A stretch of DNA of 64,000 nt from Callorhinchus milii (Eukaryota), in the NCBI RefSeq assembly GCF_018977255.1, contig NW_024704742.1:130760001-130824000 (forward strand). Direction: 5' to 3'. Made by a program: the position numbers and the translations under genes. Below, piece after piece: positions 5,027-35,533 of the stretch (position 1 is the stretch's first letter; each line of letters opens with the position of its first letter). The notes beneath the pieces were generated by a model. The model had not been told where the DNA came from and did no database searches. It saw only the letters and a list, made by a program, of their open reading frames with translations.

Positions 5027-5746
5027 GGCGGGGGGCGATCAACCGGGTTACACACGGCAGGGATAAGACAGACGAGAGAGAGATTTGGAGTGGGGGGGTT
5101 GTTGTTGTTTTTTTTTTTGGGGGGGGAGGGGGAGAGTGGGGGGGAGGAGAGGGGGGAAGGGGGAGAGTGGGAGAGGGGGAAAGGGGGTTGTGGTTGTGGG
5201 AGAGGGAAGATGAATGGGGTCCTTTTAAGAGGGGGGGGAATAAATAAACCACTGGAAAAATAAAGAGATTGTGGGGGGGAGGGGGAGGGGGGGGGGTCGT
5301 CTGAGAATCTGGTGGGAATCAATAAACTACTGAAAAATAATAATAATTAATGATGGTGGTGGTGATGGTGATAGTAACACACACACACACACAAAAAAAA
5401 AGGAAGAACAAACAGCACCTCCCCCGGGGGGAGTGAGGGGGGGTTATAAGGATATTCGGGGATAGGCTCTGACTCCCAAACAAATAGGAGAAGTTCAGAG
5501 AAAGAGAGAGAGGGAGAGAGAGAGAGAGGGAGAGAGAGAGAGAGAGAGGAAAATCAAGGGACTTGTCCTTTTTTTCCTCCTTCACACCGCAACACAAGGG
5601 GGGAGAGGAGGAGAGAGGGAGAGAGGGAGGGAGGGAGGAGGGGGGGAGGGGGAGGGCGGCCTTTAAACCCACTCTCCACACATCACTGAGAAGGATAGCG
5701 ATTGCATCATATGGGGATAAAAAAAAGTCAGGCCCCGGGCTCGGGT

Positions 5747-6765
5747 CTCTCTCTGTCTCTCTGCTCACACTCAGGCCCTCTCTCTCTCTCTCTCTCTCTG
5801 CTCACACTCAGGCCCTCTCTCTCTCTCTCTCTCTGCTCACACTCAGGCCCCAGCTCTCTCTCTCTCTCTCTCTGCTCACACTCAGGCCCCAGCTCTCTCT
5901 CTCTCTCTCTCTGCTCACACTCAGGCCCCAGCTCTCTCTCTCTCTCTGCTCACACTCAGGCCCCAGCTCTCTCTCTCTCTCTCTCTCTGCTCACACTCAG
6001 GCCCCAGCTCTCTCTCTCTCTCTGCTCACACTCAGGCCCCAGCTCTCTCTCTCTCTCTCTCTCTCTGCTCACACTCAGGCCCCAGCTCTCTCTCTCTCTC
6101 TCTCTCTGCTCACACTCAGGCCCTCTCTCTCTCTCTCTGCTCACACTCAGGCCCCAGCTCTCGCTCTCTCTCTGCTCACACTCAGGCCCCAGCTCTCTCT
6201 CTCTGCTCACACTCGGGCCCCAGCTCTCTCTTTCTTCACTAACACTATCTCTGCTCACACTCAGGCCCCAGCTCTCTCTCTCTCTCTTCACTAACACTAT
6301 CTTTGCTCACACTCAGACCCCAGCTCTCTCTCTCTCTCTCTGCTCACACTCAGGCCCCAGCTCTCTCTCTCTCTGCTCACACTCAGGCCCCAGCTCTCTC
6401 TCTCTCTCTCTCTGCTCACACTCAGGCCCCAGCTCTCTCTCTCTGCTCACACTCAGGCCCCAGCTCTCTCTCTCTCTCTCTCTCTGCTCACACTCAGGCC
6501 CCAGCTCTCTCTTTCTTCACTAACACACTCTCTCTCTCTCTCTCTGCTCACACTCAGGCCCCAGCTCTCCCTCTCTTCACTAACACACTCTCTCTCTCTC
6601 TCTGCTCACACTCAGGCCCCAGCTCTCTCTCTCTGCTCACACTCAGGCCCCAGCTCTCCCTCTCTTCACTAACACACTCTCTCTGCTCACACTCAGGCCC
6701 CGGGTCTCTCTCTTCACAAACACTCAGGCCCCGGGTCTCTCTCTTCACAGACACTCAGGCCCGGG
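5747..6765. repeat. Minisatellite, unit GCTCACACTCAGGCCCCAG-(CT)n, about 26 copies
   Basis: Constant 19-nt core separated by variable-length CT tracts; some units carry a TTCACTAACAC variant. Confidence 0.95.
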
Positions 6766-6849
6766 CTGGCTGGAGCTCTGGTCTCTCTGTCCCCCCCCCT
6801 GGCTGACTGACTGGCTGCCTGACGAGTCCTCCCAGCTGCTCCTCCAAGC

Positions 6850-13952: not shown

Positions 13953-14060
13953 ATGGGGATACAAAGAGAAACCCTGAGAAGGATGGCAACGACATTCAGA
14001 GTGCGGAGCGTGCTGGCAAAGCAATGCCTGGCGGAATGTTTGGGAACGTTGATCCACACG
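13953..14060 (+). CDS. AQP3: Aquaporin-3-like, divergent tandem paralogue (copy A), exon 1 of 6
   Basis: MGIQRETLRRMATTFRVRSVLAKQCLAECLGTLIHT, 108 nt, donor GTGAGT at 14061. Confidence 0.93.
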
Positions 14061-14998
14061 GTGAGTTCTGCCCACGGGGATGATATTCAGAGCCATCGAC
14101 TCTCGCTGCTTGTTCCGGTGACCTGTTCCGTGCTTTCCGTGGATCCGTTTTTGCCTGGAGTTCGCTCTGCGGTTTTTTCTTCTGTTTGTCACAAAATATG
14201 AGAGGGGCAGCAGGTGGATGCGCAGAATCATGCGAAAACCAGCTTCTGTTTTTACAGTCTTCGGAGCTGCCTGTGGAGAGGTTATCACTTTAAGAATAAA
14301 GGGAGCATCTGTTTATTTGTTAGCGGCAAGAACCACTTTGGAAAATATTTGTCTTCCTAAGGTTTGTGCTTCTGCTATTAATAATAATAGTAATAATCCC
14401 TATATTTCATATAGCGCCTTTCACGTTGGGAAAAAAGTGCTTCACAGGGTTTCACTGGGAAGTGTAGTGACCTTGCAGCCAATTTTGCACACAACTATGG
14501 TTTACAATGAATTGAGATGACCAATTTTATTTTTCGCACACAATTTACTGTATATTCTGTGAAGCGCTTTGAGATGTCTAGAAGATGTGAAAAGCGCTAT
14601 ATCAAATGCAAGGATTATTATTTATATTATTATCTGGCAATTGTTGGCCAGGACACTGGAAGAAACTCCTTTTTCTTTTTGAATGGTGCCATGGGATTGT
14701 TAACATCCACCTGAAAAGGCAGTCGGGACCTTGGTTTAACATCTCACCTGAAGGTGAGTATGACTCATAGACACTTCAATACAGACTATGAGTTGAAACT
14801 CCTGATGTGGGTCTTGAACCCATAACTTTCTGACTTGTTGAGAGCTGAGAGTGCTATTACCTGAGCCAAACTGACACCCTATAATTTTACACCGGCCGTC
14901 TTCTAGATTTGGCTTACTTTGCTAATGTGTTCAATAATCCATAAAGTGTGTCTATAAAGATGCTATGAATCTCAATCCTACTTCTATATAGTTACTTC

Positions 14999-15350
14999 TC
15001 GGTGGTTAGAGCACTCGCCTCGCAAGCGAGAGACCTGGGTTTGATTCCCGGCAGGGCGAAACTTGAGTAAGTTTCCTTACACCACACGACTCTGTTTACC
15101 TAACAGTAAGTAGGAACCTGATTGCTAGTTGATTAGCGGATCGCTTTTCTGGGGATAATAATCCCTTTAAAAAAATAATTTGGTCATTCAATCCATGACT
15201 GTTTGTGGGACACTGCTGTGCACAATTTGCTGCTGTGTTTTGCCCACAAAATATACAGTCAATTCGCTTTACAGTATATTCTGTGAAGCGCTTTGGGACG
15301 TCTAGAAGACGTGAAAAGCGCTATATCAAATGCAAGGATTATTATTATTA
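14999..15350 (+). mobile_element. tRNA(Ala)-derived SINE, long form
   Basis: tRNA head, internal CTGTTTACCTAACAGTAAGTAGGAACC block, (ATT)n tail. Confidence 0.9.
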
Positions 15351-16077
15351 TTCTGTGAAGCGCTTTGAGGCGTTTTGAAGTTGTGATAAGGCACTATATC
15401 AAATGTAAGGATTATTATTGCTATTGTTATTATTATTATTTTGTGTCAACCCGTTCCTCACTCGACTTCACTGGCTCCCTAACCTCCCAATGATGAATCA
15501 ATGTTAAGATCCCTTGTCCTACCTTCAAATGCCTTCTTGAGACTTGCCCCACCTTATCTCCTGTGACCCTACTCTCCTGCTAGTCTTTCTGGTCTGCAAA
15601 CTCTGGCCTGTGCCATGCGTGAGTGGGCAGGATGCTCTGGCCACTCTGTCCCACCATCAGCTGGTGAGCTTTCAACCACACACTGGATCTCTTCCAAAAT
15701 CCCTCTGCCTCGAACGCTCACCTCTCTCTTTTTGAAATTCGGTCTGAAGACTTTATCTCTTTGACTGCATTTTCGACCATCTCCCCCTATTCCCCGCCGC
15801 CCCCCCCCCCCACCCCCCACAACCCACCCGCCAACCCCTCCCTTCCACTCATTCTTTGTAACTTGCTTTGAGACATCCTCCCCGCGTGAAAGGTGCTAAA
15901 TAAGTGCAATTTGCTGCAGTTAAATAAAATTCCAATGAAGGACAAATTGGCCGTCATGGCTTCCTACATAATAGACAGTCACTACAATTCACACTAAAAT
16001 CCCTCAATGTGTAATTACGATATCTCGTGATATGAAAGGCGCTATGTTAAATAGGAGCACTATTATTATTATTCTAG

Positions 16078-18250
16078 TATGACCCTCAGCTCCAGGTCGT
16101 CTCTTGCTCTGTCCTCCTACTCCTCTGGCTCATTCCCCTCCTTCGAGCACCTTATAATAATAACTAATAATAATCCTTGCATTGATATAGCGCTTTTCAA
16201 GTCTTCTAGACGTCTCAAAGCGCTTCACAGAATATACTATAAAGTGAATTGACTGTATATTGTGAGCTAACTGCGGCAGCCAATTACGCACAGCAGTGTC
16301 TCACAAACAGTCGTGGATTGAGTGATCAAATTATTATTCTATTTTTGTTCTTGAGGGATTATTATCAGGCGTGTGGAATAAGGAAACTTGCCAAAGGATT
16401 TGCCCTGCCGGGAATCAAACCCAGGTCTCTCGCTTGCGAGGTGAGTGCTCTAACCACTGAGCTACAGGACTCAGTGGTTAGAGCACCTTACCCTCTACCA
16501 TCCCTCCAATCTTTCCCTCAAAATTCTCCTGATTTATCGTCTCCCAAACCCTCCCCACCCTCATCTCCGACATCTCCACCCTCCTAGCTTCCCTCTGCCT
16601 CTGTTCCGAATGCCTCCTCATCTGAGGCGACTTCAACTTGCACTTCACCCCCACTTGCTCTATCTCCACCAGCTTCTCCTCTCTCCTTTCCTCTCGCAAT
16701 CTGTCCCTCACATCCACTCTGCCACCCACGTTCATGGCCACCCACTTGACCTGGTGATTACCCAGGGCCACAGTGTCTCGGACCTCACAATCGCCGATAA
16801 AGATCACAATTACATCTCCCTTAACTCCTCAATTCCTTGCCCCACTGCTACACAATCCACCTCCATCTCCCACTGCCCCTGGAAAATAATCTGCCCCCCC
16901 CACCCCCACTCTCCACTGCCCTGGAGTTGTCTGAAGTCCTCCCCCTCTGACTTATTCTTCTTGGTCACTTTCCTCCACAACTCCCTCTCCACCACTCTCG
17001 ATGCCCTTGCTTCTCTCACTTCCCGAACCACCTCCTACTCACACAACTCACACTGGCACACCAGACACCGCTCATTCAAGGGTCAGGTGCGGGCCTCCAA
17101 ATGCACTTGGCTGAAATCTGATTTAACGGTCCACTGGCAGATCTGGCTGGACCACATTAAAGCTTACCGCTCCGCTCTCGCCTCGGCTAAATTGTCGTTC
17201 TATTCCAAGATAATCTTGGAGGCCAAAGACAACCAACCCCAGGCTTCTCCTCTCCATTACCAACTGGCTCCTCTGTCCACCCTTTTACCCCTTGCCCATC
17301 CTCTCCTCCAACTCCAACTGCGAGGAGATGCTGGATTTCCTCGAGACCAAAATCGAGGGATTCCGTTCAGCTGCCTCTGCCCTCCCAACTACCACCCACT
17401 CCCCATCTCTCCCTCAAACTCTGGCCCCTACCCATCCCTCCCTCCACACTTTCGAACCGTCAACATCAGAATCCACGGATGCACACTCCACCTCACCGAG
17501 CCAGTCAGGAACTCAGGCGTCTTGTTTGACCCTCAACTGTCAATTCTCTCCCACATCCATGCCATGACCCGCTCTGCCTTCCCTAACCTCCGAAACATTG
17601 CCCGACTCTGCCACAGCCTCACCCCTCAGGCCACCGAATCCCTCATACATGCCTTTATTACAACCTGACTTGACTGTGCCAACGTCCTGCTAGTCGGCCT
17701 TCCCAACTCTTCCCTCCACAAGCTGCAGACCATCCAGAGCTCTGCAGCTCGTGTCCTTTCCCGCACCAGGCTCTGTGACCCCATAACCGCCACCCTCGCC
17801 CGACTCCACTGGTTCTCCATCCCTCAGAGGATTGAGTTAAAAATTCTCATCCTCACCTTCAAGCTCTCCATGGCCTTGCCCCCTCCTAATTTTCTGACCT
17901 GCTAACCCATTATCAACCTGTCCTGTCCCTCTGCTCAGCAGGCTCTGGCCTGCTCCATGTCCCCTGCCCAGTCCGCCCCACCATCGGCGGTCGGTCCTTC
18001 AGCCACTCTGCCTCCACCCTCTGAAACCATCCCACATTCCCTTCACCTCGTTCCCTCCCTTGCCTGTTTCAAGGCACATCTCAAGACCCTCCTCTTCGAC
18101 CGTACCTGTGGCCACCCTCCTACCCTCTCTGCCATCCACCTTCCCTGATCCCACCACGCCCCCCCAGCTCGGGTCCTAATCCCTGACATTTCAGCGCCTT
18201 GGGACGTCCTCCTGACGTGAAATGCACTTTGCAAATGTAATTTTATATTG
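16078..18250 (+). mobile_element. Degenerate, internally deleted L2-clade LINE with a nested SINE (16155-16470, minus)
   Basis: ORF 16610-17668 contains the APE endonuclease C-terminal motif THVHGHPLDLVIT and post-RT motifs VRNSGVLFDPQLS/ESLIHAFIT; L2 3' tail at about 18190-18250. Confidence 0.85.
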
Positions 18251-18414
18251 TAAAATCGCTCAATGTGTAATTATGATATCCTCATGACGTGAAAGGCACT
18301 ACATTAAATAGGAGCACTATTAATATTATTCTAGGAAAAGGACAAGAGGTGGTGTGTGTATCATGTAACAGGAGCAGACGGGAGAAAGTTAATTGTTGCT
18401 TTGTTTCCTTGTAG

Positions 18415-18541
18415 ATGCTCAGCTGTGGAGCAATGGCACAATACACCCTCAGTCGCGGTGAGCAGAGAGAGTTTTTGACTCTTACTTTCACCCTTGGCTT
18501 TGCGGTGGCTCTTGGTATACTTGTAACCGGTAAAGTGTCAG
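18415..18541 (+). CDS. AQP3: Aquaporin-3-like copy A, exon 2
   Basis: TAG|ATG..TCAG|GTATGT, 127 nt; MLSCGAMAQYTLSRGEQREFLTLTFTLGFAVALGILVTGKVS. Confidence 0.93.
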
Positions 18542-20175
18542 GTATGTGCATCAAACTGCTCTCAAACCATTCGCCTGCAAAATACACAGTCAATAACTAC
18601 ACTTTACAGTACATCGTGTAAAGGGCTTTTGAGACGTCTCCATAATTGAGATAAGAAGAACAACAACTTGAAATTTCTATAGTGCCCTGAGTGTAGGGTT
18701 AATGCAAGGATTATATTGAAGAGGTCTAAACAGGATGTGACGAGGTGTTTCAGCAGCATTGGGTGTGAGATGGAGTTGGAGGCAGGTGATACAATACAAA
18801 CTACAACACAAACATATTTATATAGATCTACCACTTAGACATGGCAGAGGAGAAGGAAGCCAGCCTTGCTGAGGGACTGGAGGAAAGCTGGGGATTAGAC
18901 CGGACGCCAAGGTTGCGCACAAGTTCGGAGGGTTTGAGGGAGACACTGAAAAGATTGAGGGAGAGACCAGAGAGGTTGAGGAGGTTAGAGCAGGAAGAGA
19001 GGAGATGTAGTCGGGAGCCGAGGAGGATGGCTCCCATCTCATCCTAATTAAGTTGGAGGAAGCTTATCAAATGTAAGGATCATTAATAATAATAATAATA
19101 AAAAAAAGTGTGAAGCTCTGAGGTCGGAAGGCCTCTCCGGGATGTAAACGCCTGTTAAGTAGACAAAATGTCAGGGTGAGATTTGAGAAAAGCTCTTTAG
19201 AAAAATAATTAAAACTCATGTTCGGTGCCTGTGTTAAAACTTTTATTTTTGTGTGCTGAAATGTCAGGTACAAACAAACCACCTGACTTGCATTAAAAAC
19301 AGTGGCATTAAGCAGTGCTATTTAAAATGTCATCCGGTTTCCCCACGAAGGGTCTGGCTGGTGTAGTGAGCTGGAATGCTGCTCCTTCACTTCTCTGACC
19401 TTTGTTTAATTCCAGCCTGATGGATGGGGTGAAAACATATCCTTTCTATTCCATTTCCGAGTAAATTAATTTTTAGCAGGCCTTTTCTGTCAGCTGGGTG
19501 TCTGACACACGTGGAAACCCAGCACCGTGCTTAGGAGTATCCAAACCAAACTGAGCGTTGTGTGCATCCCACCTACACATGGAATAATAATAATAATAAA
19601 TATTATTATTCCATCCCCCAATCACTCCGCCTCGCCCTCTTCTTAGCCTCCTTCAAGTCCCGCCGCAAAACCCTCCTCTTCGACCATGTTATCCGTCACC
19701 CCCCTTCCCCTCCCCTCCCTTCTCCCTCCCTGACCCCAGCTTGGGTCTGAAATGCTGTACACTGTCCAGCACTTTGGGACGTTCCTCCTGACGTGTAAGG
19801 TGCTATACAAATGTAATCTTGCTCTTGTTCTTGTTGTAATAATAATACTCAGTACTTTGGGACATCCTCCCGACATGAAAGGCGCTATACAAATGTAATT
19901 TGTTGTTGTTGTCAGTGTATCCTTTGAGACATCTTCATGACTTGATAAGGCTCCATATCAAATGCAAAGATTATTATTATTATAACAAACATAATAAGCT
20001 CAAACCTTTGAAGGTTTAGAAGCGTATGGGAGGAAGTAAGGAGTGCTCAGAGACTTATGTGGCATATAATCACCAGGAAAGGTTGTTCCATGCTGAACAT
20101 TCTTTGTAAAATGCAGTATAGCCCAATTTGATTTCTTCATAGGTAATATCTTGTTGTCTTTGTAATCCTGTCCAG

Positions 20176-20313
20176 GAGCTCACTTGAATCCTGCTGTGAC
20201 CTTTGCTTTGTGCTTACTTGCTTGTGAACCCTGGATAAAATTCCCCTTCTTCTTTGTGGCACAAACATTGGGAGCATTTTTTGGATCTGGGATAATGTTT
20301 GGCTTGTATCACA
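20176..20313 (+). CDS. AQP3: Aquaporin-3-like copy A, exon 3 (first NPA)
   Basis: CAG|GA..CACA|GTAAGT, 138 nt; [46 protein letters not shown]. Confidence 0.95.
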
Positions 20314-20981
20314 GTAAGTAATGAAGTAACTTTTCTTTCGATCCTATGCATCAATATAACGGTTGTCAATGTCGCATTTAAAAGATATAAGCCACCAAAA
20401 CAAGGGCCTAGACATCGCTTCAAAAAATATAAATCAAGATAGTAAGAGGACACTCACAGTTTTCTTCCAATCGGACCCCAAAAGTAGCACTGTTGCTTTC
20501 AATATTGTCCTTTGCTGAAATCAGAGTACCACAACTCTGAAATTCCTCATGGTGTTATCATCTTGCCCACAAATATACAGTCAATTCACTTCACAGTATA
20601 TTCTGTAAAGCTCTTTGAGCCGTCTAGAAGACTTGAAAAGCACTATATGAAACGCAAGGATTATTATTATTATTATTAAGACCATTCTTAGACTTTGAGA
20701 CTGCGCAGAAATGTTTAAAATGCTTAATTAGGTTTTCTTTAGTTCATTAGCATTTTCCAAAAAAAACCAACAGAGATAAGAATATAATATAAGAATTGCT
20801 GGATGAAAGAAGACCAAGGTCCATCCAGTTCGCCTTCCATCACCCTGGCGGTCACATGCGCATGTCATGTCCCAAACTATACATGGTATCCCGAGATATA
20901 ATTTCCTTAAAGAAATCTATCTAATTTACTTTTGAAGGATTCACAAATTACCTAATGAGGGTTTGCATGATATCATTGCAG

Positions 20982-21100
20982 ATGCAATAATGCACTATGG
21001 TAACAATCAACTCACAATCATTGGACCCAATTCCACTGCTGCTATATTTACCACATACCCATCCGAAGATTTGACTGTGGTGAATGGGTTTCTTGACCAT
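20982..21100 (+). CDS. AQP3: Aquaporin-3-like copy A, exon 4
   Basis: CAG|AT..CAT|GTAAGT, 119 nt; NAIMHYGNNQLTIIGPNSTAAIFTTYPSEDLTVVNGFLDH. Confidence 0.93.
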
Positions 21101-22025
21101 GTAAGTGAGCAGAAATGTATGAGATTAAATGCGTTGTTTTATTTACTGGAATAAAAATAGGAAAACCAGCTTCAGAGTCCAAAGAATTTTGTAGCAAGTG
21201 CTTAAGACTTTGAGAACACATATGTGTGCCACCTACACATGGAAATTTCCCTGTGTCTGGAATAGAATGTGCACTTTCTCCCTGGAGCGATGCTTCCTGT
21301 TTATCTGATTCTGGAAAGTATTAGGTGCAAATTGGCGAGTGCCAAGGCTTGGGGACCCCAGCGTGTGTTGGGGTAACTGCTGGAGTCCAACCTGCTAAAA
21401 CCGCTTAGCTTGACACCAACTGAGTCAAGGCTGAGTCAAACAGTTGTAAAGTGCAATTTCAAGACAGATGCCAGGACAATAACAAATGTATATTTATACA
21501 GTGCCTTTCACATCAGGAGGACATTCCAAGGTGCTGGACAGTCCAGGGTTTGCTCCCAAACTGGGGGTGTGAACCAAGGTGGGCGGGGATGAGGTTTTTT
21601 TCCCTTTAAACAGAAGGTAATCAACCACTAGAACAGATTGCCACGACTAGTGAAGGCCAGGACAATGGACTCATTTAAAAAGCAGCTGATGCTGTGTAGG
21701 GTGGATGAGATCTGGAAGGACGAGATTGGGTGGGCTGAAGGGCCTTCTTCATTCAGACCGATCTTGTGATCATACTGTATGCGCAATAAAACAGTGGAGG
21801 TGGCCCGTGAATATAAACTTTCTACAAATCACTGATTGTTTATGGAAGCCTGTAGCGTAATGGTCAGAGGAATCGCTTTGCAAGTGAGAGGATGCGGGTT
21901 TGATTCCCAGCAACAAGTTTTCTTACTCCACATGCCTGTTTCCAGCACCTTGGGATGTTCTCCCGATGTGAAAGGCGCTGTACAAATGTAATTTGTTGTT
22001 GTTGTTGCTCCTGCCCGGAAACCAG

Positions 22026-22243
22026 GTCATCGGCACGGCCGCTCTCATATTCTGTATCCTGACCATCGCGGATCCACTGAAAAGACCGGTGGCCACAGGG
22101 CTGGAGGCTTTCACCATAGGCTTTGTGGTTCTAATCGTTGGCTTGTCCATGGGCTTCAACTCCAAGTATTGCTTAAATCCTGCCAGAGACATTGGACCTC
22201 GTTTGTTCAGCGCCATGGCTGGCTGGGGATATGACGTTTTCAG
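22026..22243 (+). CDS. AQP3: Aquaporin-3-like copy A, exon 5 (second NPA, NPARD)
   Basis: CAG|GTC..CAG|GTACTC, 218 nt; [17 protein letters not shown]...[31 protein letters not shown]. Confidence 0.95.
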
Positions 22244-22981
22244 GTACTCTCCTCCGCTATTCCTTATTCAATAAGGTTGTTTTTCATTTATTTTCACGAA
22301 TGACTAGTTATTTGGAAGAAGAGGGGGACGTATATCTATAATGGGGTCTTACCTAGAACTTCTAATACTACCTCCTCCCTACACAAACAACAACAACTTA
22401 CATATATACAGCGCCCTTCGTGCGAGCAAAGTCGCAGTGCGATTAACAGGGGTGTGGTTGGATCCCGAGCTGGAAAGAGAGGGGAGCAGACTGAAGGCAT
22501 TGTCGAAGGGCAAAGTTTTCAAGTGTGATCTGAAGATGGGCAAAGAGGGGGCAAAATGCAGGGATTAAGGCAGGGAATTCCAGATTTTTAATAGTCATCA
22601 ATGATGGAGGGACGACGGATTTGCAGAAGTAGAGTTGGGTGTGAACAGATCGGAGAGGTAGACAGGTACCAGGGAAATATTATTACAAATAAAATATGAA
22701 TAATTCTTGCATTCCATATAGCACCTTTCACATCGGGAGGACGTAGCAAAGCACTTCACAGGGCATACTGTAAAGTGAATTCTGTGAAGTGCTTTGAGAC
22801 ATCCTTCCAAAAGGTGCTTATATGAAATATAAGGATTATTATTTTTATAATATTGATACAAGAAGGTCCCTTTCGCCATCTTGTTGCTGTGATTGGGGGA
22901 GAGCAGGAGATTTCCATATCAGCAACCAGAATAATATTGCACTTTTTAAAGTTTTAAACTTGTTAAAGCAATTTCATTTTA

Positions 22982-23340
22982 GGAGTCCTACAGCGTACAG
23001 AGCACTCGCCTCGCAAGCGAGACGACCTGGGTTCAATTCCCGGCAGGGCAAAACCTTAAGCAAGATTCCTTACTCCACACGCCTCTGTTTACCTAGCAGT
23101 AAGTAGGAACTTGGTTGTTAGTCGATTGGCGGATCGTTTCCCAGAGGTAATAAACCCTTTTAAAAAAATTTGGTCGCCCAATCCATGACTATCTGTGGAA
23201 CACTGCTGCACGCAATTGTCTGCCACGTTTCACCCACAAAATACACAGTCACTACACTTTACAGTATATCCTACGAAGAGCTTCGAAATGCCTCGATGAC
23301 GTAATAAGGTGCTATATCAAATTCAAGGATTATTATTATT
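22982..23340 (+). mobile_element. tRNA(Ala)-derived SINE, long form
   Basis: Same head, internal block and tail as the other copies. Confidence 0.85.
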
Positions 23341-23490
23341 CTTCTTCTGTGAAGTGCTTTGAGATGTTTCGATGACGTGATAAGGCACTATATCAAATCT
23401 AAGGATTAATGTTATTATTATTATTATTTTGTTTCATTCAATGTTCATTAACACCCAGTGCCTTTATTTGCTGCCTTCTTATCTTTTCAG

Positions 23491-23665
23491 CACAGGGAAC
23501 TATTGGTTTTGGGTGCCAGTTCTCAGCCCAATCGTCGGGGCCATGTTTGGCGTTCTGGTCTATCAGTTCATGGTGGGTCTGCAGGTTGAGACAAAAAGTA
23601 ACTGCACGTCCCATTCAGAGGAAACCGTAAAGTTAACCAGCGTGAAAGCGAAGGGCAGGCGTTGA
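23491..23665 (+). CDS. AQP3: Aquaporin-3-like copy A, exon 6 (terminal; TGA)
   Basis: TTTTCAG|C, 175 nt; STGNYWFWVPVLSPIVGAMFGVLVYQFMVG...KAKGRR*; the spliced CDS is 885 nt (294 aa) with no frameshift. Confidence 0.93.
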
Positions 23666-27416: not shown

Positions 27417-27524
27417 ATGGGGAAACAGAAAGAAACCATCAGGAAAATTCAAGACTTATTCCGTATAAGAAACATGCTGGTAAAACAATGCCTTGCTGAA
27501 TGTCTGGGGACTTTAATTCTCGTG
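27417..27524 (+). CDS. AQP3: Aquaporin-3, canonical copy (copy B), exon 1 of 6
   Basis: MGKQKETIRKIQDLFRIRNMLVKQCLAECLGTLILV, 108 nt, donor GTAAGT. Confidence 0.96.
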
Positions 27525-29099
27525 GTAAGTGCTTCGCTTTTCATTGCTAAGGTTATTAATATTATAATTATTATTATGATTATTATTATATTATTTTTAT
27601 AAGATATGCTTTTGCTGGAACTTTTTGGGGGAGAGTTGCAATGATTTTACTGGAAAGTCGCTGTTTACCTACAGTAAGTAGGAACCCGGTTGTGACTCAA
27701 TTAACAGATCACTTTTCTGGGGTAATAAATCCCTTTTAAAAAAAAGTAAATAATTATACTTGGTCACTCAGTCCACGACTGTTTGTAGGACACTGCTGTG
27801 TACAATTGGCTGCTGCGCTTCCCCTTCAAACTATACAGTCAATTAACTTTGCAATATATTCTGTGAAGGGTTTTGAGATGTATATAAAAAAATGCAAGGA
27901 TTATTATTAATGTTGTTGGTCACAGAGTAAATGTGCAAGCCAAAATGCAGCAATGATTTCACTCTCAATGAACAGATTTCTGTACAGAACCTATTTCTGG
28001 CTTTCGATTGAGCTCAGGAAAAAAAGTAGCATTTTATTTATTACTTAACATAAACCATTTCTAAAACTACAGCATTAATGTCTCCTTGAGTTGATGATAA
28101 TTTTATTGCTGTCAACAGTCTGACTTCAATTGCAAGGGAGATTAACGCTCCACAAAAACTTTACATTTTGAAGGCTTGAGAAATGTTTAAATTAAGCTTT
28201 GCTTCTCTGCACACCTGAGTACGTACCAATCATACACTATAAGGAATACAAAGCACTTATACAACTAATCATGTACAAGGGATAAACCTTGTAGTGCGCA
28301 GGTAGCTTCACCTTTATTCTACCCATACTTAGTGAAATCACGTTATTGCAAATTCAATATCACATTTTTCATCCCCATTAACTCTAACTGTTAATTTGCC
28401 CACAAATATACGGTCAATTCACTTTACAGCATATTCTGTGAAGCGCTTTGAGACGTTTAGAAGACATGAAAAAGCGCTATATCAAATACAAGGATTATTA
28501 TTATATTATTATATAACTGCAGCACTGTGAATGTGCCTTGGGTCATCCTCCCGACATTAAAAATATTATATAAATGTAAATTGTATTGTGTCGTTCGGGC
28601 TTCCGCAGTGAAACACTTTGAAACATTTTCCTGTGTGAAAGGTGCTACACAAGTGCAATTTGTTGTTTGGTTTTCTCTGGTTTTGGAAATGGACCCTTGT
28701 TTCTATTTGAATCTAAAGGAATTTTCAGCTTTGTTTTGAACCTATCCTTGTGATTGTTCCATCTACAAGCCTAGCAAAGGGAACCCAGAGCACATTTTCC
28801 TATGTTGAGCAGATATAGTAGTCAGCTTCAGACTTTTTCACAAGTTTCTGATGTTTGAACCTTTGGTGATTATTTCAGCTTCAAACACCTCATGATAAAC
28901 TTCCCCAGCTCATCGATGGCACAAACATGTTACATTTAGCTCCGAGCTGAAAAGTATTTACGTCACAGACAAAAATAAATCCTGAAAAGGTGTTGAGATT
29001 CCAGGCCTCTGAACAATGTGTAATCGCTTCACGTGAAACATAATGTGCTCATAATGTTGGATTCCTGACATGAAGACTGAACATGAAATCCACGGTACA

Positions 29100-29459
29100 G
29101 GGGTCCTGTAGTGTATTGGTTAGAGCATTCGCCTTGCAAGTGAAAGGACCGGGCAGGGAAAAACCTTAGGGAAGTTTCCTTACTCCACACGCCTCTGCTT
29201 ACCTAGCAGTAAGTAGGAACCGGTTGTTAGTCGATTGACAGATCCCTTTTCTGGGGTGTAATAATCCCTTAATTTTTTTTTTTAATTTGGTCACTCAATC
29301 CACGACTGTTTGTGGGACACTGCTGTGCACAATTGGCTGCCACTTTTCGCTCACAAAATATACAGTCAATTCACTTTACAGTATATTCTGTGAAGTGCTT
29401 TGAGACGTCTCAAAAACATGATGAGGCGCTGTATCAAATGTAAGGATTATTATTATTAT
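29100..29459 (+). mobile_element. tRNA(Ala)-derived SINE, long form
   Basis: Family head, internal block and tail. Confidence 0.85.
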
Positions 29460-30296
29460 CCAAGTCGTGCAAATAGTGACTCCTGGAAGGATATCAATTC
29501 AGCTCTGGGCAAACCTATTCCTGTTGGATCTTCTTTCAGAGCTTTGTTGCCGAGGGGCGACAGGATTTCTTATTTAGGAATCTCTTTAGAAATCATACAT
29601 TTTAGACACCCATGTAGGACAAAACCCTTACAGTTAGTTATGTTATTTGCTGAGCAGAGTTTACTGGAGTGCCTTACGCTGTAAAGAATTTTCACATCGG
29701 GAGGCCGTCTCAGAGGGCTTCATTGGGTAGTCGGCAGTGACTGTGTGTTTTGTAGGTGAACGCAGCAATTAATTTGCGCACAGAGATGTCCCACAAACAG
29801 CCACAAAGTGAATGACCAATTTTATCTGGCGGATTGTTGACCATGACAATGGGAGAAACTACCTTCTCTTTTTGAGCAGTGCCAAGGGATCTTTAACATC
29901 CGCCTAAACAGAAGATGCCACCTCGGTTTAAAGTCTCATCCGAAGCACAGCACCTCTAACAATGCAACATCCCCCCAGCACTGCATTGGATTGATAGCCT
30001 AGACTATCAGATTGAACTACTGATGTGGGAGCTTGTGGGAGCCTACAATGTAGTGGCTGAAGGCCCGGCTGCCAATGGTGGGGTGGAGGGGCCCGAGGGA
30101 TATGTAGGAGGCTGGAGCCAGTTGAGCAAAGGGAAAGAGTAGAGGAGTGAGGTGTGAGCAGGTCAGAGAGGTAGGGGGAGGGTGCCAGGGCATGAAGTAA
30201 TTTGTACACGAGTGTGAGGATCTTGAAATCGATCCGTTCTGCAATAGGGAGCCAGTGTACCTGGAATTAATTTAATCTTGACATTTCTCCTTCTAG

Positions 30297-30423
30297 CTGT
30301 TTGGCTGCGGGGCACTGGCACAGATCACTCTCAGTCGGGGAACGCACGGAGCCTTTCTAACAGTCAACTTAGCCTTCGGATTTGCGGTGACTCTTGGTGT
30401 GCTTGTGGCCGGTCAAGTGTCGG
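30297..30423 (+). CDS. AQP3: Aquaporin-3 copy B, exon 2
   Basis: TAG|CTG..TCGG|GTAAGA, 127 nt; [42 protein letters not shown]. Confidence 0.96.
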
Positions 30424-31019
30424 GTAAGACGATCCCTATGGAGAAGGGCAACACCTTTTTAAACCACACTGCACAGCAGGTCACTGTCAGCAATTAACAA
30501 TAGTCATAATAAGCTTTTCACCAGAGAAAATGTCAGCAAGAGATTATGTGGAGCAACACGTCATTGAAAAGAATAAAGAATCGCACCCTGGTTTAAGGTC
30601 ATGATTTTTCTCACCCTTAATCTCTTAGAATGTCAAATGAGTATTGTGATCCGCAGCACAAAATCCCGCTATAGACTTTGACCATGAAGACTGTTTTGTT
30701 TGGCTTAAAGTGTGTAAGATCATGTAATTCAACTCAGCAGTTAATCAGCAGTAAATAGGAACCCCATTATTAATCGATTGCAAATTGCTTTCGGGGGATA
30801 ACAATCCCTTCAAAACAGAAAATAGAAATTTTCTCACTCAATCCACGAGTGTTTGTGGGATTTGCTGTACACAATTGGCTGCCATGTTTCGCCTACAAAA
30901 ATGCAGTCAATTCACTATGCAGTATATTCAATGACATGGTAAAGTGCTATATCAAATGCAAGGATTATTATTATAACTCTTTATTTAGAAATATTGTGTC
31001 CCTTCTATTCTATGGACAG

Positions 31020-31157
31020 GAGCTCACCTGAATCCTGCTGTGACCTTTGCTTTGTGTCTACTTGCTCGTGAGCCCTGGATCAAATTTCCCCTTTTCTCTT
31101 TGGCACAAATATTGGGTGGATTTCTTGGAGCAGGTATCATCTTTGGATTATATTTTG
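31020..31157 (+). CDS. AQP3: Aquaporin-3 copy B, exon 3 (first NPA)
   Basis: CAG|GA..TTTG|GTGAGT, 138 nt; [46 protein letters not shown]. Confidence 0.96.
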
Positions 31158-31479
31158 GTGAGTAACAAAGTTATTTATATATTATACAAATTTGGACTAG
31201 CTTCCTTTGACTTACGGTCTAATGTTTTGATATTTGATTAAGTTTGCTGATTGCAGTTACACATAAATTTGGGAAGAATTCAAAGAATGATCTATAATTT
31301 CGCTCAAATCCTTTTTCTTCTTCACTAATGGATATCCGTTCATTTTGTTCACATTGGCCATACATTCAATTTCTTATCAATCATCAAGCAATCATTGGGA
31401 GAAGGGAATCCTCCCACTCAGCTCCTATTAACCCTGCAACCCAAAGCCCTAAAGAGTAGTGTGGTCCTAGCTGGACCAG

Positions 31480-31870
31480 CAACAACAACAACAAGATTTC
31501 ATTTATAGAGCGCCTTTCACGTCGGGAGGACGTCCCAAGGCGCCGGACCGTTGGGTTGGGACCCGAGCAGGGGGCAAATGGTCAGGGGTGAGGAGAGGGA
31601 AGGGAGGGAGCGAGGAAGGGGTAGAGAGTCGAGAGGGGAGCTGAAGGCACGGTTGAAGAGAAAGGTCTTGAGACCAGCCTTGAAGGAGGAAAGGGAGGAA
31701 GCAAGGCGAAGGCACTGGGGGATAGAGTTCCAGAGCCTCGGGGCTGAGAGGCTGAAGGCCCGGCCACCGATGGTAGGCGGTTGGGGCGGGGGATGTGGAG
31801 CAGACCGGAGCCAGAGGAACGGCGGGTACGGGCAGGTAAGTAGGGGGATATTAGGTCGGAGAGGTAGGAG
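31480..31870 (-). mobile_element. L2-clade LINE 3' fragment
   Basis: Remnant IGGRAFSLSAPRLWNSIP..SFKAGLKTFLF with (TTG)n tail; very similar to 55310-55606. Confidence 0.85.
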
Positions 31871-32212
31871 GGAAAGCTTGCCAGACAGCGATATCAATGG
31901 CAAGCTGTGTGATTTTAACTGATTAGACTCCAGCAGTACGCCAACATACGTGCCTAAAACTTTCTGAATTAGTTAGGCAGAGTGCTTCCCTCCGGGGAGA
32001 GAGTGCATATTCCATCCCAATAATCTACCTCCGGAATGCTTGGAATTCTCAGGTTGGTTTGGATACTCTTACGTCTGATGATGGGTTTCCTCATGTGTCA
32101 GAAGCAGACCATTTGGCCCAGCTATCAAATCCTGTCATAACCTTGATTCATATTAATTATTAATGTTGTTATTATTCTACCAATAGTTTATTTGATCATT
32201 ATCTTTTTGCAG

Positions 32213-32331
32213 ATGCAATTTGGCTCCATGGTAATAACCATCTGATAGTAATGGGACCTAATGCTACTGCTGGGATATTTGCGACTTACCCGTCTGAACA
32301 CTTGACTTTAATCAATGGTTTCTTTGATCAG
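32213..32331 (+). CDS. AQP3: Aquaporin-3 copy B, exon 4
   Basis: CAG|AT..CAG|GTAAGA, 119 nt; [40 protein letters not shown]. Confidence 0.96.
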
Positions 32332-32428
32332 GTAAGACTGAGATTACATACAGGCTGTTACAAATGAAGCTTCAACCTGGTCCTTCACTGAATATTTCAT
32401 ACTTATCTATCTTGTTAACTACTCAGCA

Positions 32429-33151
32429 ATTCCCTAAATTTGAGTTATTTGAGCCGAACAGCAACATTTCAACAACACTGGCTTTCTGTACTTTTTTTTA
32501 GTGGAAAAAATCTGCCTCAATAAAGATAGATTGAAACAGCCAAATTCCAAGATGGTTGTTCACAGGAGCAGCTCAGGTGATTGGATACAAACTCTTAGAT
32601 GATTAGGAGTTTCCAGTTTCCCTGGGCTGACCCTTTATGAGATTTCAATGCTTTTTTTCTGTTTTTTTCTTTTCGATTATGCATCATCCCTCCTCCACAC
32701 CCCCGCAACCCCCAACTCCCCACCCGCCATCCTCCCCATCCTCCTGCCCTCTACCCTCTGCGATCCCAACCTGGGTTGCAAGCCTCTCATTGCCCAGTGC
32801 CTTGGGAAGTCTTCTCGATGTGAAAGGCACTATATAAATGCAATTTGTTGTTGTTGTGGTTGCTGGCACACATTGGGGCAAACCATGGCTGCGATGCTTC
32901 ATAACTTCTTCCTTGTGATAACACTCAACAAAACCTGATGCAAAACATCGCAAATTCCAATCTATTCCTTAGTATATCACAGGGATAAATCACCTGAGCA
33001 GCTCCTGGGAACAACTATCTTGGAATTTGGCTGTTGGAGCACATTCCATATCTGTCTTTATTGAGGCAGATTTTTCCCACTAAAAAAAGTACAGAAAGCC
33101 AGTGTTGTTGAAATGTTGCTGTTTGGCTCAAATAATTCAAATTTAGGGAAT
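32429..33151. repeat. Long inverted repeat (arms 32429-32582 and 32988-33151) in intron 4 of aqp3 copy B
   Basis: Arm 2 reverse-complemented matches arm 1 nearly base for base, apart from one ~10-nt indel and scattered substitutions. Confidence 0.9.
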
Positions 33152-33513
33152 CTTATATTTAATTATATTCATCTGAATTTGATTTTACAGATCTGAAGGT
33201 TGGATATAATATCTAAATTGTCACATATGTTTTTACATTCAAAGAGAAAAGAATTTCTCCCCGTGTTCTGGTCACCAATTGCCCAGATAAGATTATCATT
33301 TTCATCACAGCTGTTTGTGGGACATTGCTTTGCACAAATTGGCTGCCATGTTTGCCTACGGATATACAGTTGCTACACTTCAAAGTAAAATCATGCGAAG
33401 TACTTTGAAATGTCCTGACATGATAAGGCACTGTATCAAATGCAAGTATTATTATTATTAATAATTATTATTAGTACTATCTCGCTTGACAATCTAAAAC
33501 ATGTGCAAGACAA

Positions 33514-33897
33514 ATAATAATAATCCTTGCATTTGATATAGCACCTGATTATGTCTTTGAGATGTTTTAAAGCGCTTCATAGAACATACTGTAAAGTGAA
33601 TTGACTGTATATTTTGTAGGCGAAATGCAGTAGCCAATTGCACACAGCAGTGTCCTACAAACAGCCGTGGATTGAGTGATCACATTTAAAAAAAAATTAT
33701 ATATATATTTTGAAGGGATTATTACACCCAGAAAAGTGATCCGCCAATCGAATAACAACCGGGTTCCTATTTACTGCTAGGTAAACAGAGGCATGTGAAG
33801 TAAGGAAACTTGTCTAACATTTTGCCCTGAGTGGAATCAAACCCAGGTCCTCTGCTTGCGAGGCGAGTGCCCTAACCAATATGCTACAGGACTCCAC
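33514..33897 (-). mobile_element. tRNA(Ala)-derived SINE, long form
   Basis: Reverse-oriented family copy. Confidence 0.85.
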
Positions 33898-34058
33898 AAT
33901 ATAGTCTGTAAAGTGTTTGAGAGGCCTTAACTATGTCATAAGGTGCTACATCAAACACAAGGATTATTATTATTATTATTGTTGTTGTTTGCAAAACAAT
34001 TCTCACCGAGTGATGGATTACCTCTGATGTTTTGCTTTTCCTTTCTCTGAAACGGCAG

Positions 34059-34276
34059 CTGATTGGCACAGCAGCTCTCATCGTCTGTATCCTTGCCATT
34101 GTGGATCCATTCAACAACCCGGTGCCAAAGGGAGTGGAGGCCTTCACTATTGGCTTTGTGGTTCTGGTAATCGGCTTGGCAATGGGCTTTAACTGTGGCT
34201 ACGCTGTGAACCCAGCCAGAGATTTTGGACCTCGCTTGTTTACCTCACTGGCTGGCTGGGGCACCAAAGTCTTCAG
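34059..34276 (+). CDS. AQP3: Aquaporin-3 copy B, exon 5 (second NPA, NPARD)
   Basis: CAG|CTG..CAG|GTACGA, 218 nt; [25 protein letters not shown]...[27 protein letters not shown]. Confidence 0.96.
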
Positions 34277-34626
34277 GTACGAGAATTTTTATTTGTTATT
34301 TTGAGGTTCATTTCAGTCTGTCAGTATTTTTTCTTCCCTCCCCTTTCGTGCTCATGCCCCACGTCGGGACTTTTGAACTCATATCGTCTAGGCTGATGCT
34401 CCAATGCAGTGATGGTGGGGGGGAGGGGAAATGCCCCTTCTTTGGATGAGACATCTTATCTGAAGGATGTGCCGCCAGCATTGTAGCTCACCCCCAGCAC
34501 TGCACTGGAGTGTCATCTTAGACTATGTGGTTGGTTGGGGAATTCATAACAGGGGTACATAAATATAAGATATATAAGTATATAAAAGAGAATTTTGGAG
34601 GAACTACTTCACCCAGAGGATAATTT

Positions 34627-34950
34627 GTGGAGTCCTGTAGCTCAGTGGTTAGAGCACTCGCTTTGCAAGTGAGAGACCTGAGTTCAATTCCAGGCATGGC
34701 GAAACCTTGGGCAAGTTTCCTTACTCCACACACCTAATAATAATCCCTCCAAAAACCAAAAAACAATAATTAAATTGGTCATTTTCAATCTACAACTGTT
34801 TGTGGGACATTGCTGTGCGCAATTGGCTGCCGCGTTCGCCCACAAATATACAATCAATTCACTTTACAGTGTGTTCTGTGAAGCGCTTTGGGATGTCCTC
34901 CCGACGTGAAAAGCGCTATATCAAATGCAAGGATTATTATTATTATTATT
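34627..34950 (+). mobile_element. tRNA(Ala)-derived SINE, short form
   Basis: Full-length copy with A/B boxes and (ATT)n tail. Confidence 0.9.
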
Positions 34951-35358
34951 AATTAGGTTGTGAAATTTGCTGCCTGAAGCGGTGTTTGAATCAGATAGTG
35001 TAGAGGCAATCAAGAGGAAGCTAGACCTTCATATGAGGGAGAGAGGAATAGAAGGGTATGGGAGGGAGTAAGGAATAGGTGGAGACTTGTGTGGAATATA
35101 AACACCGACAAAGACTGGTTGGGCCGAATGTCCCGTTTCCATGCTGTGCAGTCTTGATAAATCTTTTAGTGTTATGTGTGCAAATGGTTATCTGCTTGTC
35201 CAATAAACTGTTTACATATAGTGTAGCTATAGAAAGTCAGCTGTAATTCATACGTTTCAATTAAATGATTGTTTGTAATGCTTCTTTATTTCTTCCCCCT
35301 TGCCCCCCTTCACCCCCTTCCCTTTTATCCCCCCCTTCCCCACCTTCCCACCCCCCAG

Positions 35359-35533
35359 TGCTGGAAACTACTGGTTTTGGGTGCCCATTCTAGCCCCGCT
35401 CCTTGGTGCAGTGCTTGGTATTCTGGTTTACCAGCTGATGGTTGGCATACACACCGAACCCGAAGAAAACCATTCATCCAGTGCAGAAGAAAGAATAAAA
35501 CTGGCCAACATGAAGCCGAAAGAAAACTGCTGA
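35359..35533 (+). CDS. AQP3: Aquaporin-3 copy B, exon 6 (terminal; TGA)
   Basis: CCCCAG|T, 175 nt; SAGNYWFWVPILAPLLGAVLGILVYQLMVGIH...KPKENC*; the spliced CDS is 885 nt (294 aa). Confidence 0.95.

Follow-up and report, generated by a model that had tools for sequence, protein, structure and literature searches.

Tandem AQP3 genes in the window

We analysed a 64,000-nucleotide stretch of the Callorhinchus milii genome (assembly GCF_018977255.1, contig NW_024704742.1, positions 130,760,001 to 130,824,000 of the forward strand; hereafter the window, whose own positions are used throughout), which carries two AQP3-type aquaporin genes in tandem. The upstream gene, copy A, is aqp3c1, an expressed and selectively maintained AQP3 duplicate that predates the split between chimaeras and sharks. 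The gene, its name, the duplication, the expression of its orthologues and its lack of activity in oocytes are already published; no residue-level account of that silence was found in the literature searched, and subscription papers or supplements may cover it. From the residues that were kept and lost we tentatively propose, at a likelihood somewhat below even, that Aqp3c1 is a channel whose default state at neutral pH is closed, as opposed to a pH-insensitive one.

Copy A consists of six exons with GT-AG sites at all five introns, and its 885-nt frame encodes a 294-residue protein with both NPA boxes and the NPARD motif, as a first-pass annotation made from the letters alone had described. 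Copy B starts 3.8 kb downstream of copy A and has the same exon sizes, and the two proteins are identical at 185/294 residues in a gap-free alignment. The features of both genes, all on the + strand, are as follows.

13953-14060, +, aqp3c1 (copy A) coding exon 1; 3' end encodes His35 (14055-14057) and Thr36; splice model, contigs of sequencing runs X1 and X2
18415-18541, +, aqp3c1 exon 2; Leu38, Ser39, Gln53 (18463-18465), Thr60 (18484-18486), Leu63 (18493-18495)
20176-20313, +, aqp3c1 exon 3; first NPA (from 20187), Cys95, His124; spliced contigs
20982-21100, +, aqp3c1 exon 4; Met128, N141 sequon, Ala145, Asp154 (21068-21070), Asp163 (21095-21097), His164
22026-22243, +, aqp3c1 exon 5; Lys183-Arg184 (loop D), Phe208 (22155-22157), Ile220
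22164-22175, filter region in aqp3c1 exon 5, Lys211-Tyr212-Cys213-Leu214; 22176-22190, second NPA with Arg218-Asp219
23491-23665, +, aqp3c1 exon 6, coding part and stop; transcript contigs extend to at least 24300
27417-35533, +, aqp3c2 (copy B), a conventional AQP3
27417-27524, 30297-30423, 31020-31157, 32213-32331, 34059-34276, 35359-35533, +, exons of aqp3c2

A search of the genome with exon 5 gave four matches, namely copies A and B and two more distant genes. The copy A protein is identical in every letter to database protein P0001 (XP_007895330.1, C. milii aqp3c1), and copy B equals P0126 (XP_007895329.1), which is aqp3c2. Hidaka et al. 2026 (PMC13109646) list these two accessions as elephant shark aqp3c1 and aqp3c2, in that order after ube2r2. 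The pair was named, and the duplication dated before the chimaera-elasmobranch split, by Yilmaz et al. 2020 (PMC7408487), in agreement with the statement in the annotation that a second chondrichthyan aqp3 was already known.

Identity, expression and constraint of Aqp3c1

Membership of the aquaporin superfamily was clear from the PF00230 match (152 bits against a cut-off of 25) and from the fold of the copy A model (Z 41.4, root-mean-square deviation (rmsd) 1.1 Å over 267 residues to 8Y8N; predicted local distance difference test score (pLDDT) 91.5). The N215-P-A-R218-D219 motif and the small Gly203 at position 2 of the aromatic/arginine (ar/R) filter place the protein among the aquaglyceroporins. 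Descent within the AQP3 subfamily is indicated by AQP3 being the best PDB match in both sequence and fold, by the tandem with copy B and by the published synteny. In a 58-protein tree, midpoint-rooted and without an AQP7/9/10 outgroup (placement relative to those was taken from PMC7408487), copy A, the upstream tandem member, clustered with 21 elasmobranch proteins; support was 100/100 for the c1 clade and 97/85 for the c2 clade. Copy A is thus the same gene as chondrichthyan Aqp3c1, that is, aqp3C1 in the naming of Yilmaz et al. 2020 and AQP3-2 of the dogfish. The c1 branch, which crosses the midpoint root, measured 0.38 + 0.05 and the c2 branch 0.068; a relative-rate count gave 50 changes for copy A and 16 for copy B, and with five outgroups the private changes numbered 48-55 and 13-18, respectively.

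Three observations concern names and membership in this clade. Dogfish AQP3C1 corresponds to AQP3-2 of Cutler and Ojo 2024. An anti-Aqp3c1 antibody is attributed to Cutler, Kurt et al. 2022 in PMC13109646, but the dogfish 'aquaporin 3' (UDD66116.1, P0127) sits in the c2 clade. P0181 of Narcine bancroftii lies in the c2 clade on a long branch (0.28) and resembles c1 in Ile63, Ser39 and Thr37, with G211 and the latch kept.

Four sequencing runs were examined, none of them recorded as RNA, so that spliced joins served as the evidence for transcription. A single 2072-nt contig of run X1 spanned all six exons of copy A and contained no differing letter in exons 2-6, with one listed variant upstream (13943); the residues discussed below are therefore not assembly errors. 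In run X2, from a different study, two contigs covered the joins of exons 1-4 and of exons 5-6, run X3 contained spliced pieces at low depth, and run X5 read through the introns. The sole coding variant listed for copy A is synonymous. The ratio of nonsynonymous to synonymous rates (dN/dS) between copies A and B was 0.195, with dS (1.2) near saturation. The frame is intact in 21 named species and in two more in the supplement of PMC13109646, and identity within elasmobranchs (88.5% for c1, 90.2% for c2) suggests that constraint returned after the burst of change in c1. With frame and splice sites intact and a transcript present, copy A does not have the marks of a pseudogene. The anterior late distal tubule of the stingray is reported to contain both paralogues, each of which declines in fresh water (PMC12496175); for dogfish AQP3-2, which its authors title AQP3C1, an apparently basolateral position in kidney tubules is described (PMC12193596, PMC12898837).

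Clade-wide and chimaera-only residue changes

We aligned 22 c1, 24 c2 and 178 other AQP3-like proteins, with chimpanzee AQP3 (P0275) as the numbering row. One c1 row was indistinguishable from the little skate row, and later counts exclude a c2 row whose N-terminus is aberrant, which left 23. The 178 others are uncurated, teleost-heavy hits of 280-315 residues, and 29 chondrichthyan isoforms or fragments were omitted. The numbering of copy A is collinear with human AQP3 (9QSX), as annotated, and all the substitutions that the annotation had listed are present: L63, T60, K211, C213, L214, M128, A145, D154 and H164 among them, H35-T36-M37-L38-S39 in the first transmembrane segment (TM1), and E52-Q53-R54-E55 and K183-R184 in the loops. 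Copy B keeps F63, H53, W128 and H154, as had also been stated. The roles assigned to H53, Y124, S152, H154 and W128 agree with a review (PMC11203578), which adds H241.

Only a part of this list is shared by orthologues. Common to all 22 c1 proteins are H35, T36, L38, T60, a residue other than Phe at 63, K76, Q or K at 211, S or C at 213, L214 and I220, and S39 and C95 occur in 21/22. M128, A145, D154, H164, K183, K211 and C213 were found in the chimaera only (1/22 each) and Q53 in 2/22. H53, W128 and H154 are retained in 20, 21 and 20 of the 22. The idea that the gating residues had been lost from the gene as such therefore did not hold across orthologues, where H53Q is seen twice and W128M, H154D, G145A and Q164H once each; at the sites of K211 and C213, what is shared is a non-Gly 211 and a non-Ala 213. 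Similarly, Cys213 does not stand as a conserved mercury or redox site, since the residue is Ser in 21/22. A second holocephalan orthologue was not found in protein searches, and 'chimaera-only' here means one species.

The canonical AQP3 filter, Phe63-Gly203-Tyr212-Arg218, is altered in copy A by Leu63. Phe63 occurs in 0/22 c1 against 178/178 other AQP3 proteins, the c1 residues being Ile (12), Gly (7), Ser (2) and Leu (1). Copy A retains S152, D163, F208, N209, Y212 and R218; position 124 is His in copy A and Phe, not Tyr, in copy B, and both copies have Tyr in place of H241. The chimaera c1 combines F208 with L204, and all 21 elasmobranch c1 combine S208 with W204. Two more shark c1 proteins, from the supplement of PMC13109646, carry the same shared motifs as judged by eye. 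A set of diverse relatives (149 at the 50% cluster level, drawn from the top 150 among 7759 hits and giving 156 domain rows) contained His35 in 0/119 aligned rows, Lys or Gln211 in 0/145 and Ile220 in 0/147. Clade-wide c1 losses affected 7/17 conserved pore sites and 14/121 other conserved sites (Fisher p=0.005, with a site list drawn up post hoc). The chimaera protein shows 13 further departures at conserved sites that are absent from some or most other c1.

R95C, which is nearly clade-wide, was set aside, as R95A is reported to have no effect in zebrafish Aqp3b (PMC3079631). Gly207, the hinge of loop E and invariant elsewhere, is Asp in Squalus suckleyi Aqp3c1 (PMC13109646 Table S2). D163N is found in bamboo and epaulette shark c1 (P0238, P0239, P0240), as in the pH-independent AQP7, and D163E in catshark c1. 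In most c1 proteins the C-terminal tail is basic and differs from that of c2 (23648-23665 in copy A), and it may be a sorting signal. The N141 sequon is retained in 22/22 c1, and no canonical tail by the KKxx/KxKxx motif rule was seen in copy A.

The AQP3 gate in Aqp3c1

Cryo-electron microscopy studies report that AQP3 shuts by a collapse of loop E in which Tyr212 plugs the pore, and that the open state is held by the Asp163-Asn209 pair and by a stack of His154, Phe208, His53 and Phe56, with His53 contributed by the neighbouring monomer (PMC12722722, PMC11926279, PMC13324649). Replacement of H53 or H154 by Ala gave impermeable or reduced AQP3 channels (PMC12722722). The zebrafish Aqp3b mutants H154A and H53A/H154A were far less permeable at pH 6 and 7.5, an effect that was slightly weaker at pH 8.5 (PMC3079631). 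Copy A has the proposed Asp163-Asn209 pH trigger and the Tyr212 plug, and lacks the canonical stack, with Gln53 and Asp154 in it. The stack is broken in 22/22 c1 and intact in 23/23 c2 and 173/178 other AQP3, whereas Y212, N209 and R218 are invariant in c1. Its members differ by lineage: the chimaera lost H53 and H154 (H53Q, H154D) and kept F208, and the elasmobranchs have F208S in all 21 rows.

The outer pore appears to have changed as well. Position 35, seven residues past the conserved TM1 Glu, is in register with Tyr23 of AQP0, and the structural alignment gives the same offset. AQP0 Tyr23 is described as a pore-facing static gate adjoining the ar/R Phe (PMC11317983), from which it follows that His35 probably adjoins residue 63, itself reduced in size. 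Gly211, four residues before the Asn of the second NPA, is in register with AQP2 Gly180, a pore-lining residue that the human canonical and glycerol-permeable aquaporins are reported to share and that is a site of mutation in nephrogenic diabetes insipidus (PMC6032259, PMC7599609).

AlphaFold prediction from the 22 c1 sequences reached a pLDDT of 36.9, against 91.5 with 125 sequences. The latter model was derived mostly from open-type relatives, and whether the channel is open or shut cannot be read from its open-like loop E. As a separate observation, the lungfish aquaporin-3-like protein P0192, on a long branch, has Lys53 and Leu208, so that the latch is broken with Tyr212 kept; it is possibly an independent case.

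Published transport assays

In the frog oocyte assays of Hidaka et al. (PMC13109646), with culture medium of pH 7.5, C. milii Aqp3c1 gave permeabilities of 1.4 for water, 0.1 for glycerol, -0.2 for urea and 0.1 for boric acid, compared with 1.1, 1.8, 0.1 and 0.3 in the control (p>0.9999 for all four). C. milii Aqp3c2 gave 10.8, 21.9, 1.5 and 0.8. Sevengill and bamboo shark c1 were likewise silent. The authors name trafficking failure, gating or an organelle site as options, surface protein not having been measured, and neither 'aromatic' nor 'selectivity filter' appears in the main text of that paper. A dominant-negative effect of c1, suggested by glycerol means of 0.3, 0.1 and -0.1 for the three c1 proteins against 1.8 in the control, was rejected, as p was >0.9999 and Aqp8 behaved alike.

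Possible causes of the silence

The explanation to which we lean, at the likelihood given above, is that Aqp3c1 would rest shut at neutral pH, the Tyr212 plug being kept and the stack that holds it out being broken. The stack would have been lost by two routes, H53Q with H154D in the chimaera and F208S in sharks and rays, on a pore whose outer half may have been rebuilt on the c1 stem: His35 would adjoin a position 63 reduced in size, and Gly211, which lines the pore, would have given way to a long side chain, polar or basic. Opening of such a channel would call for a particular condition (alkaline pH, a ligand or a partner), and its selectivity would probably be unlike that of AQP3. Several points weigh against this. 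Phe208 is present in only 17/94 distant-relative rows with an aromatic residue at 212, which suggests that the stack is not generally needed for an open aquaglyceroporin, and the 22/22 broken stacks amount to only two independent events. Three bamboo-shark c1 carry D163N, linked to the pH-independent AQP7, and the C. plagiosum protein that was assayed was still silent, which disfavours simple pH gating. The 125-sequence model lies slightly nearer to the open than to the closed form of AQP3 (rmsd by Foldseek 0.9-1.0 against 1.2-1.4 Å, with Z tied). H53A alone is reported only to lower permeability in zebrafish Aqp3b (PMC3079631), selectivity normally becomes broader when ar/R position 1 or 3 carries a small residue (PMC12492003), and no AQP3 with F208S was seen to have been assayed. 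Finally, oocyte surface expression was unchecked, so the null result may reflect a trafficking failure (PMC13109646).

That last point leads to the most serious alternative, which we regard as unlikely but well worth weighing: that the silence is a delivery artefact (endoplasmic reticulum retention, misfolding, or a need for Aqp3c2 as a partner or for shark osmolytes) of a channel that is open in the animal. It is the option named first by the authors of the assay. The polar residues in TM1 and the change of Gly211 could impair folding, the AlphaFold model is open-like, and the stingray paralogues that share a tubule segment both decrease in fresh water, the response expected of water channels. 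Yet the N141 sequon is universal in c1 and copy A has no recognisable retrieval tail; sister proteins of the same three species were active in the same oocyte system (PMC13109646); oocyte images were taken of zebrafish H53A, and H53A/G54H/T85A is stated to be at the plasma membrane (PMC3079631). Faulty delivery would also leave the clustering of changes in the pore unexplained. That clustering, together with the invariant NPA boxes and R218 and the return of constraint within elasmobranchs, would fit an open pore retuned for another solute (ammonia, methylamines such as trimethylamine N-oxide, H2O2, lactate or an ion), in which a new selectivity site would be formed by His35 and Gln or Lys211. 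We consider this a distinctly poor prospect: position 63 varies freely, which a tuned filter would not. An open aquaporin pore that excludes water would also be unusual.

The version put forward in the first-pass annotation, a pH- and metal-insensitive channel broadened for urea, glycerol or metalloids, seems to us very improbable. Loss of one ar/R aromatic does raise urea and boric-acid flux in Aqp10 (PMC12492003), H53, W128 and H154 are implicated in pH response and in block by Ni and Cu (PMC11203578), and a zebrafish triple mutant with H53A is reported as pH-insensitive (PMC3079631). The oocytes, however, showed no urea, glycerol or boric-acid flux, with surface delivery unchecked (PMC13109646), so that this version is tenable only if delivery also failed. 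Loss of H53 or H154 in human AQP3 and zebrafish Aqp3b lowers or abolishes permeability and does not remove the gate; the three implicated residues are kept by nearly all orthologues, the proposed trigger D163 is kept in copy A, and H241 is absent from both copies. Of the annotation's reading, an intact, transcribed, conserved and pore-diverged gene is supported, and its guess at the function is mostly contradicted by the published assay. We give hardly any credence to a decaying duplicate that gathers damaging changes. The null activity, the faster evolution of copy A than of copy B and the 13 extra chimaera departures would suit it, but frames are intact across species, spliced transcripts come from two studies, dN/dS is about 0.2, and the derived residues are identical in the chimaera and the elasmobranchs.

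Beyond closure by default, we also entertained, as a slim possibility, that Aqp3c1 gave up ordinary conduction altogether, either as a shut subunit that assembles with Aqp3c2 in the distal kidney tubule and tunes its opening, or as a channel that passes, by way of His35 and Gln or Lys211, a solute not known to be carried by any vertebrate aquaglyceroporin. As a shut subunit it might act through the latch, for His53 reaches the neighbouring monomer and a Gln53 subunit could destabilise the open state of its partner.

Other features of the window

A frame starting MAQQQMTSS runs from about 5026 downward on the - strand; a 43-residue stretch of it had no match in Pfam. We take it to be exon 1 of UBE2R2, which would agree with the published order ube2r2, aqp3c1, aqp3c2. 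A low-complexity tandem repeat tract at about 5490-6800 yields long spurious open reading frames. A repeat fragment at about 21940-22007 is 87% identical to 19850-19912 and, inverted, to 21476-21538; it stops about 20 bases 5' of the exon 5 acceptor, a junction still used by transcripts.

Comparison with known channels and significance

Copy A resembles AQP3 and Aqp3c2 (human 9QSX-9QSZ, rat 8Y8N/8Y8O) in NPA/NPARD, G203, Y212, R218, D163 and N209, in the six-exon layout common to both copies and in a model rmsd of about 1 Å to AQP3. It is unlike them in the non-Phe residue at ar/R position 1, in H35, T60, Q/K211 and S/C213, in the broken stack and in having no measured transport. Within its own orthologue group the chimaera protein alone has K211, C213, M128, A145, D154 and H164. 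AQP10 (6F7H) shares with Aqp3c1 a non-aromatic residue at 63 (Gly in AQP10) and Leu214, and with its elasmobranch members a non-Phe 208, but it retains Gly211 and, with Ile at 212, lacks the Tyr plug; glycerol, urea and boric acid all pass human AQP10 (PMC12492003). Mammalian AQP0 has a polar aromatic residue, Tyr23, at the TM1 pore position of His35, and Tyr23 is reported to lower AQP0 water flow about tenfold (PMC11317983). AQP0 is an orthodox water channel of another subfamily, and the likeness is that of one position. Plant PIP1 aquaporins are inactive alone in oocytes while a close paralogue is active, a likeness to Aqp3c1 that serves as a lead only.

The cause of Aqp3c1 silence was left open in April 2026, and the residue pattern makes for a concrete and cheaply testable hypothesis. 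It also offers a natural test of the 2025 model of AQP3 gating, as two lineages removed different members of the latch and kept the plug. If the channel is shut, kidney models with AQP3-2/Aqp3c1 as the basolateral water exit need revision, and either a shut subunit or a novel-solute channel, if true, would tie Aqp3c1 into urea-based osmoregulation.

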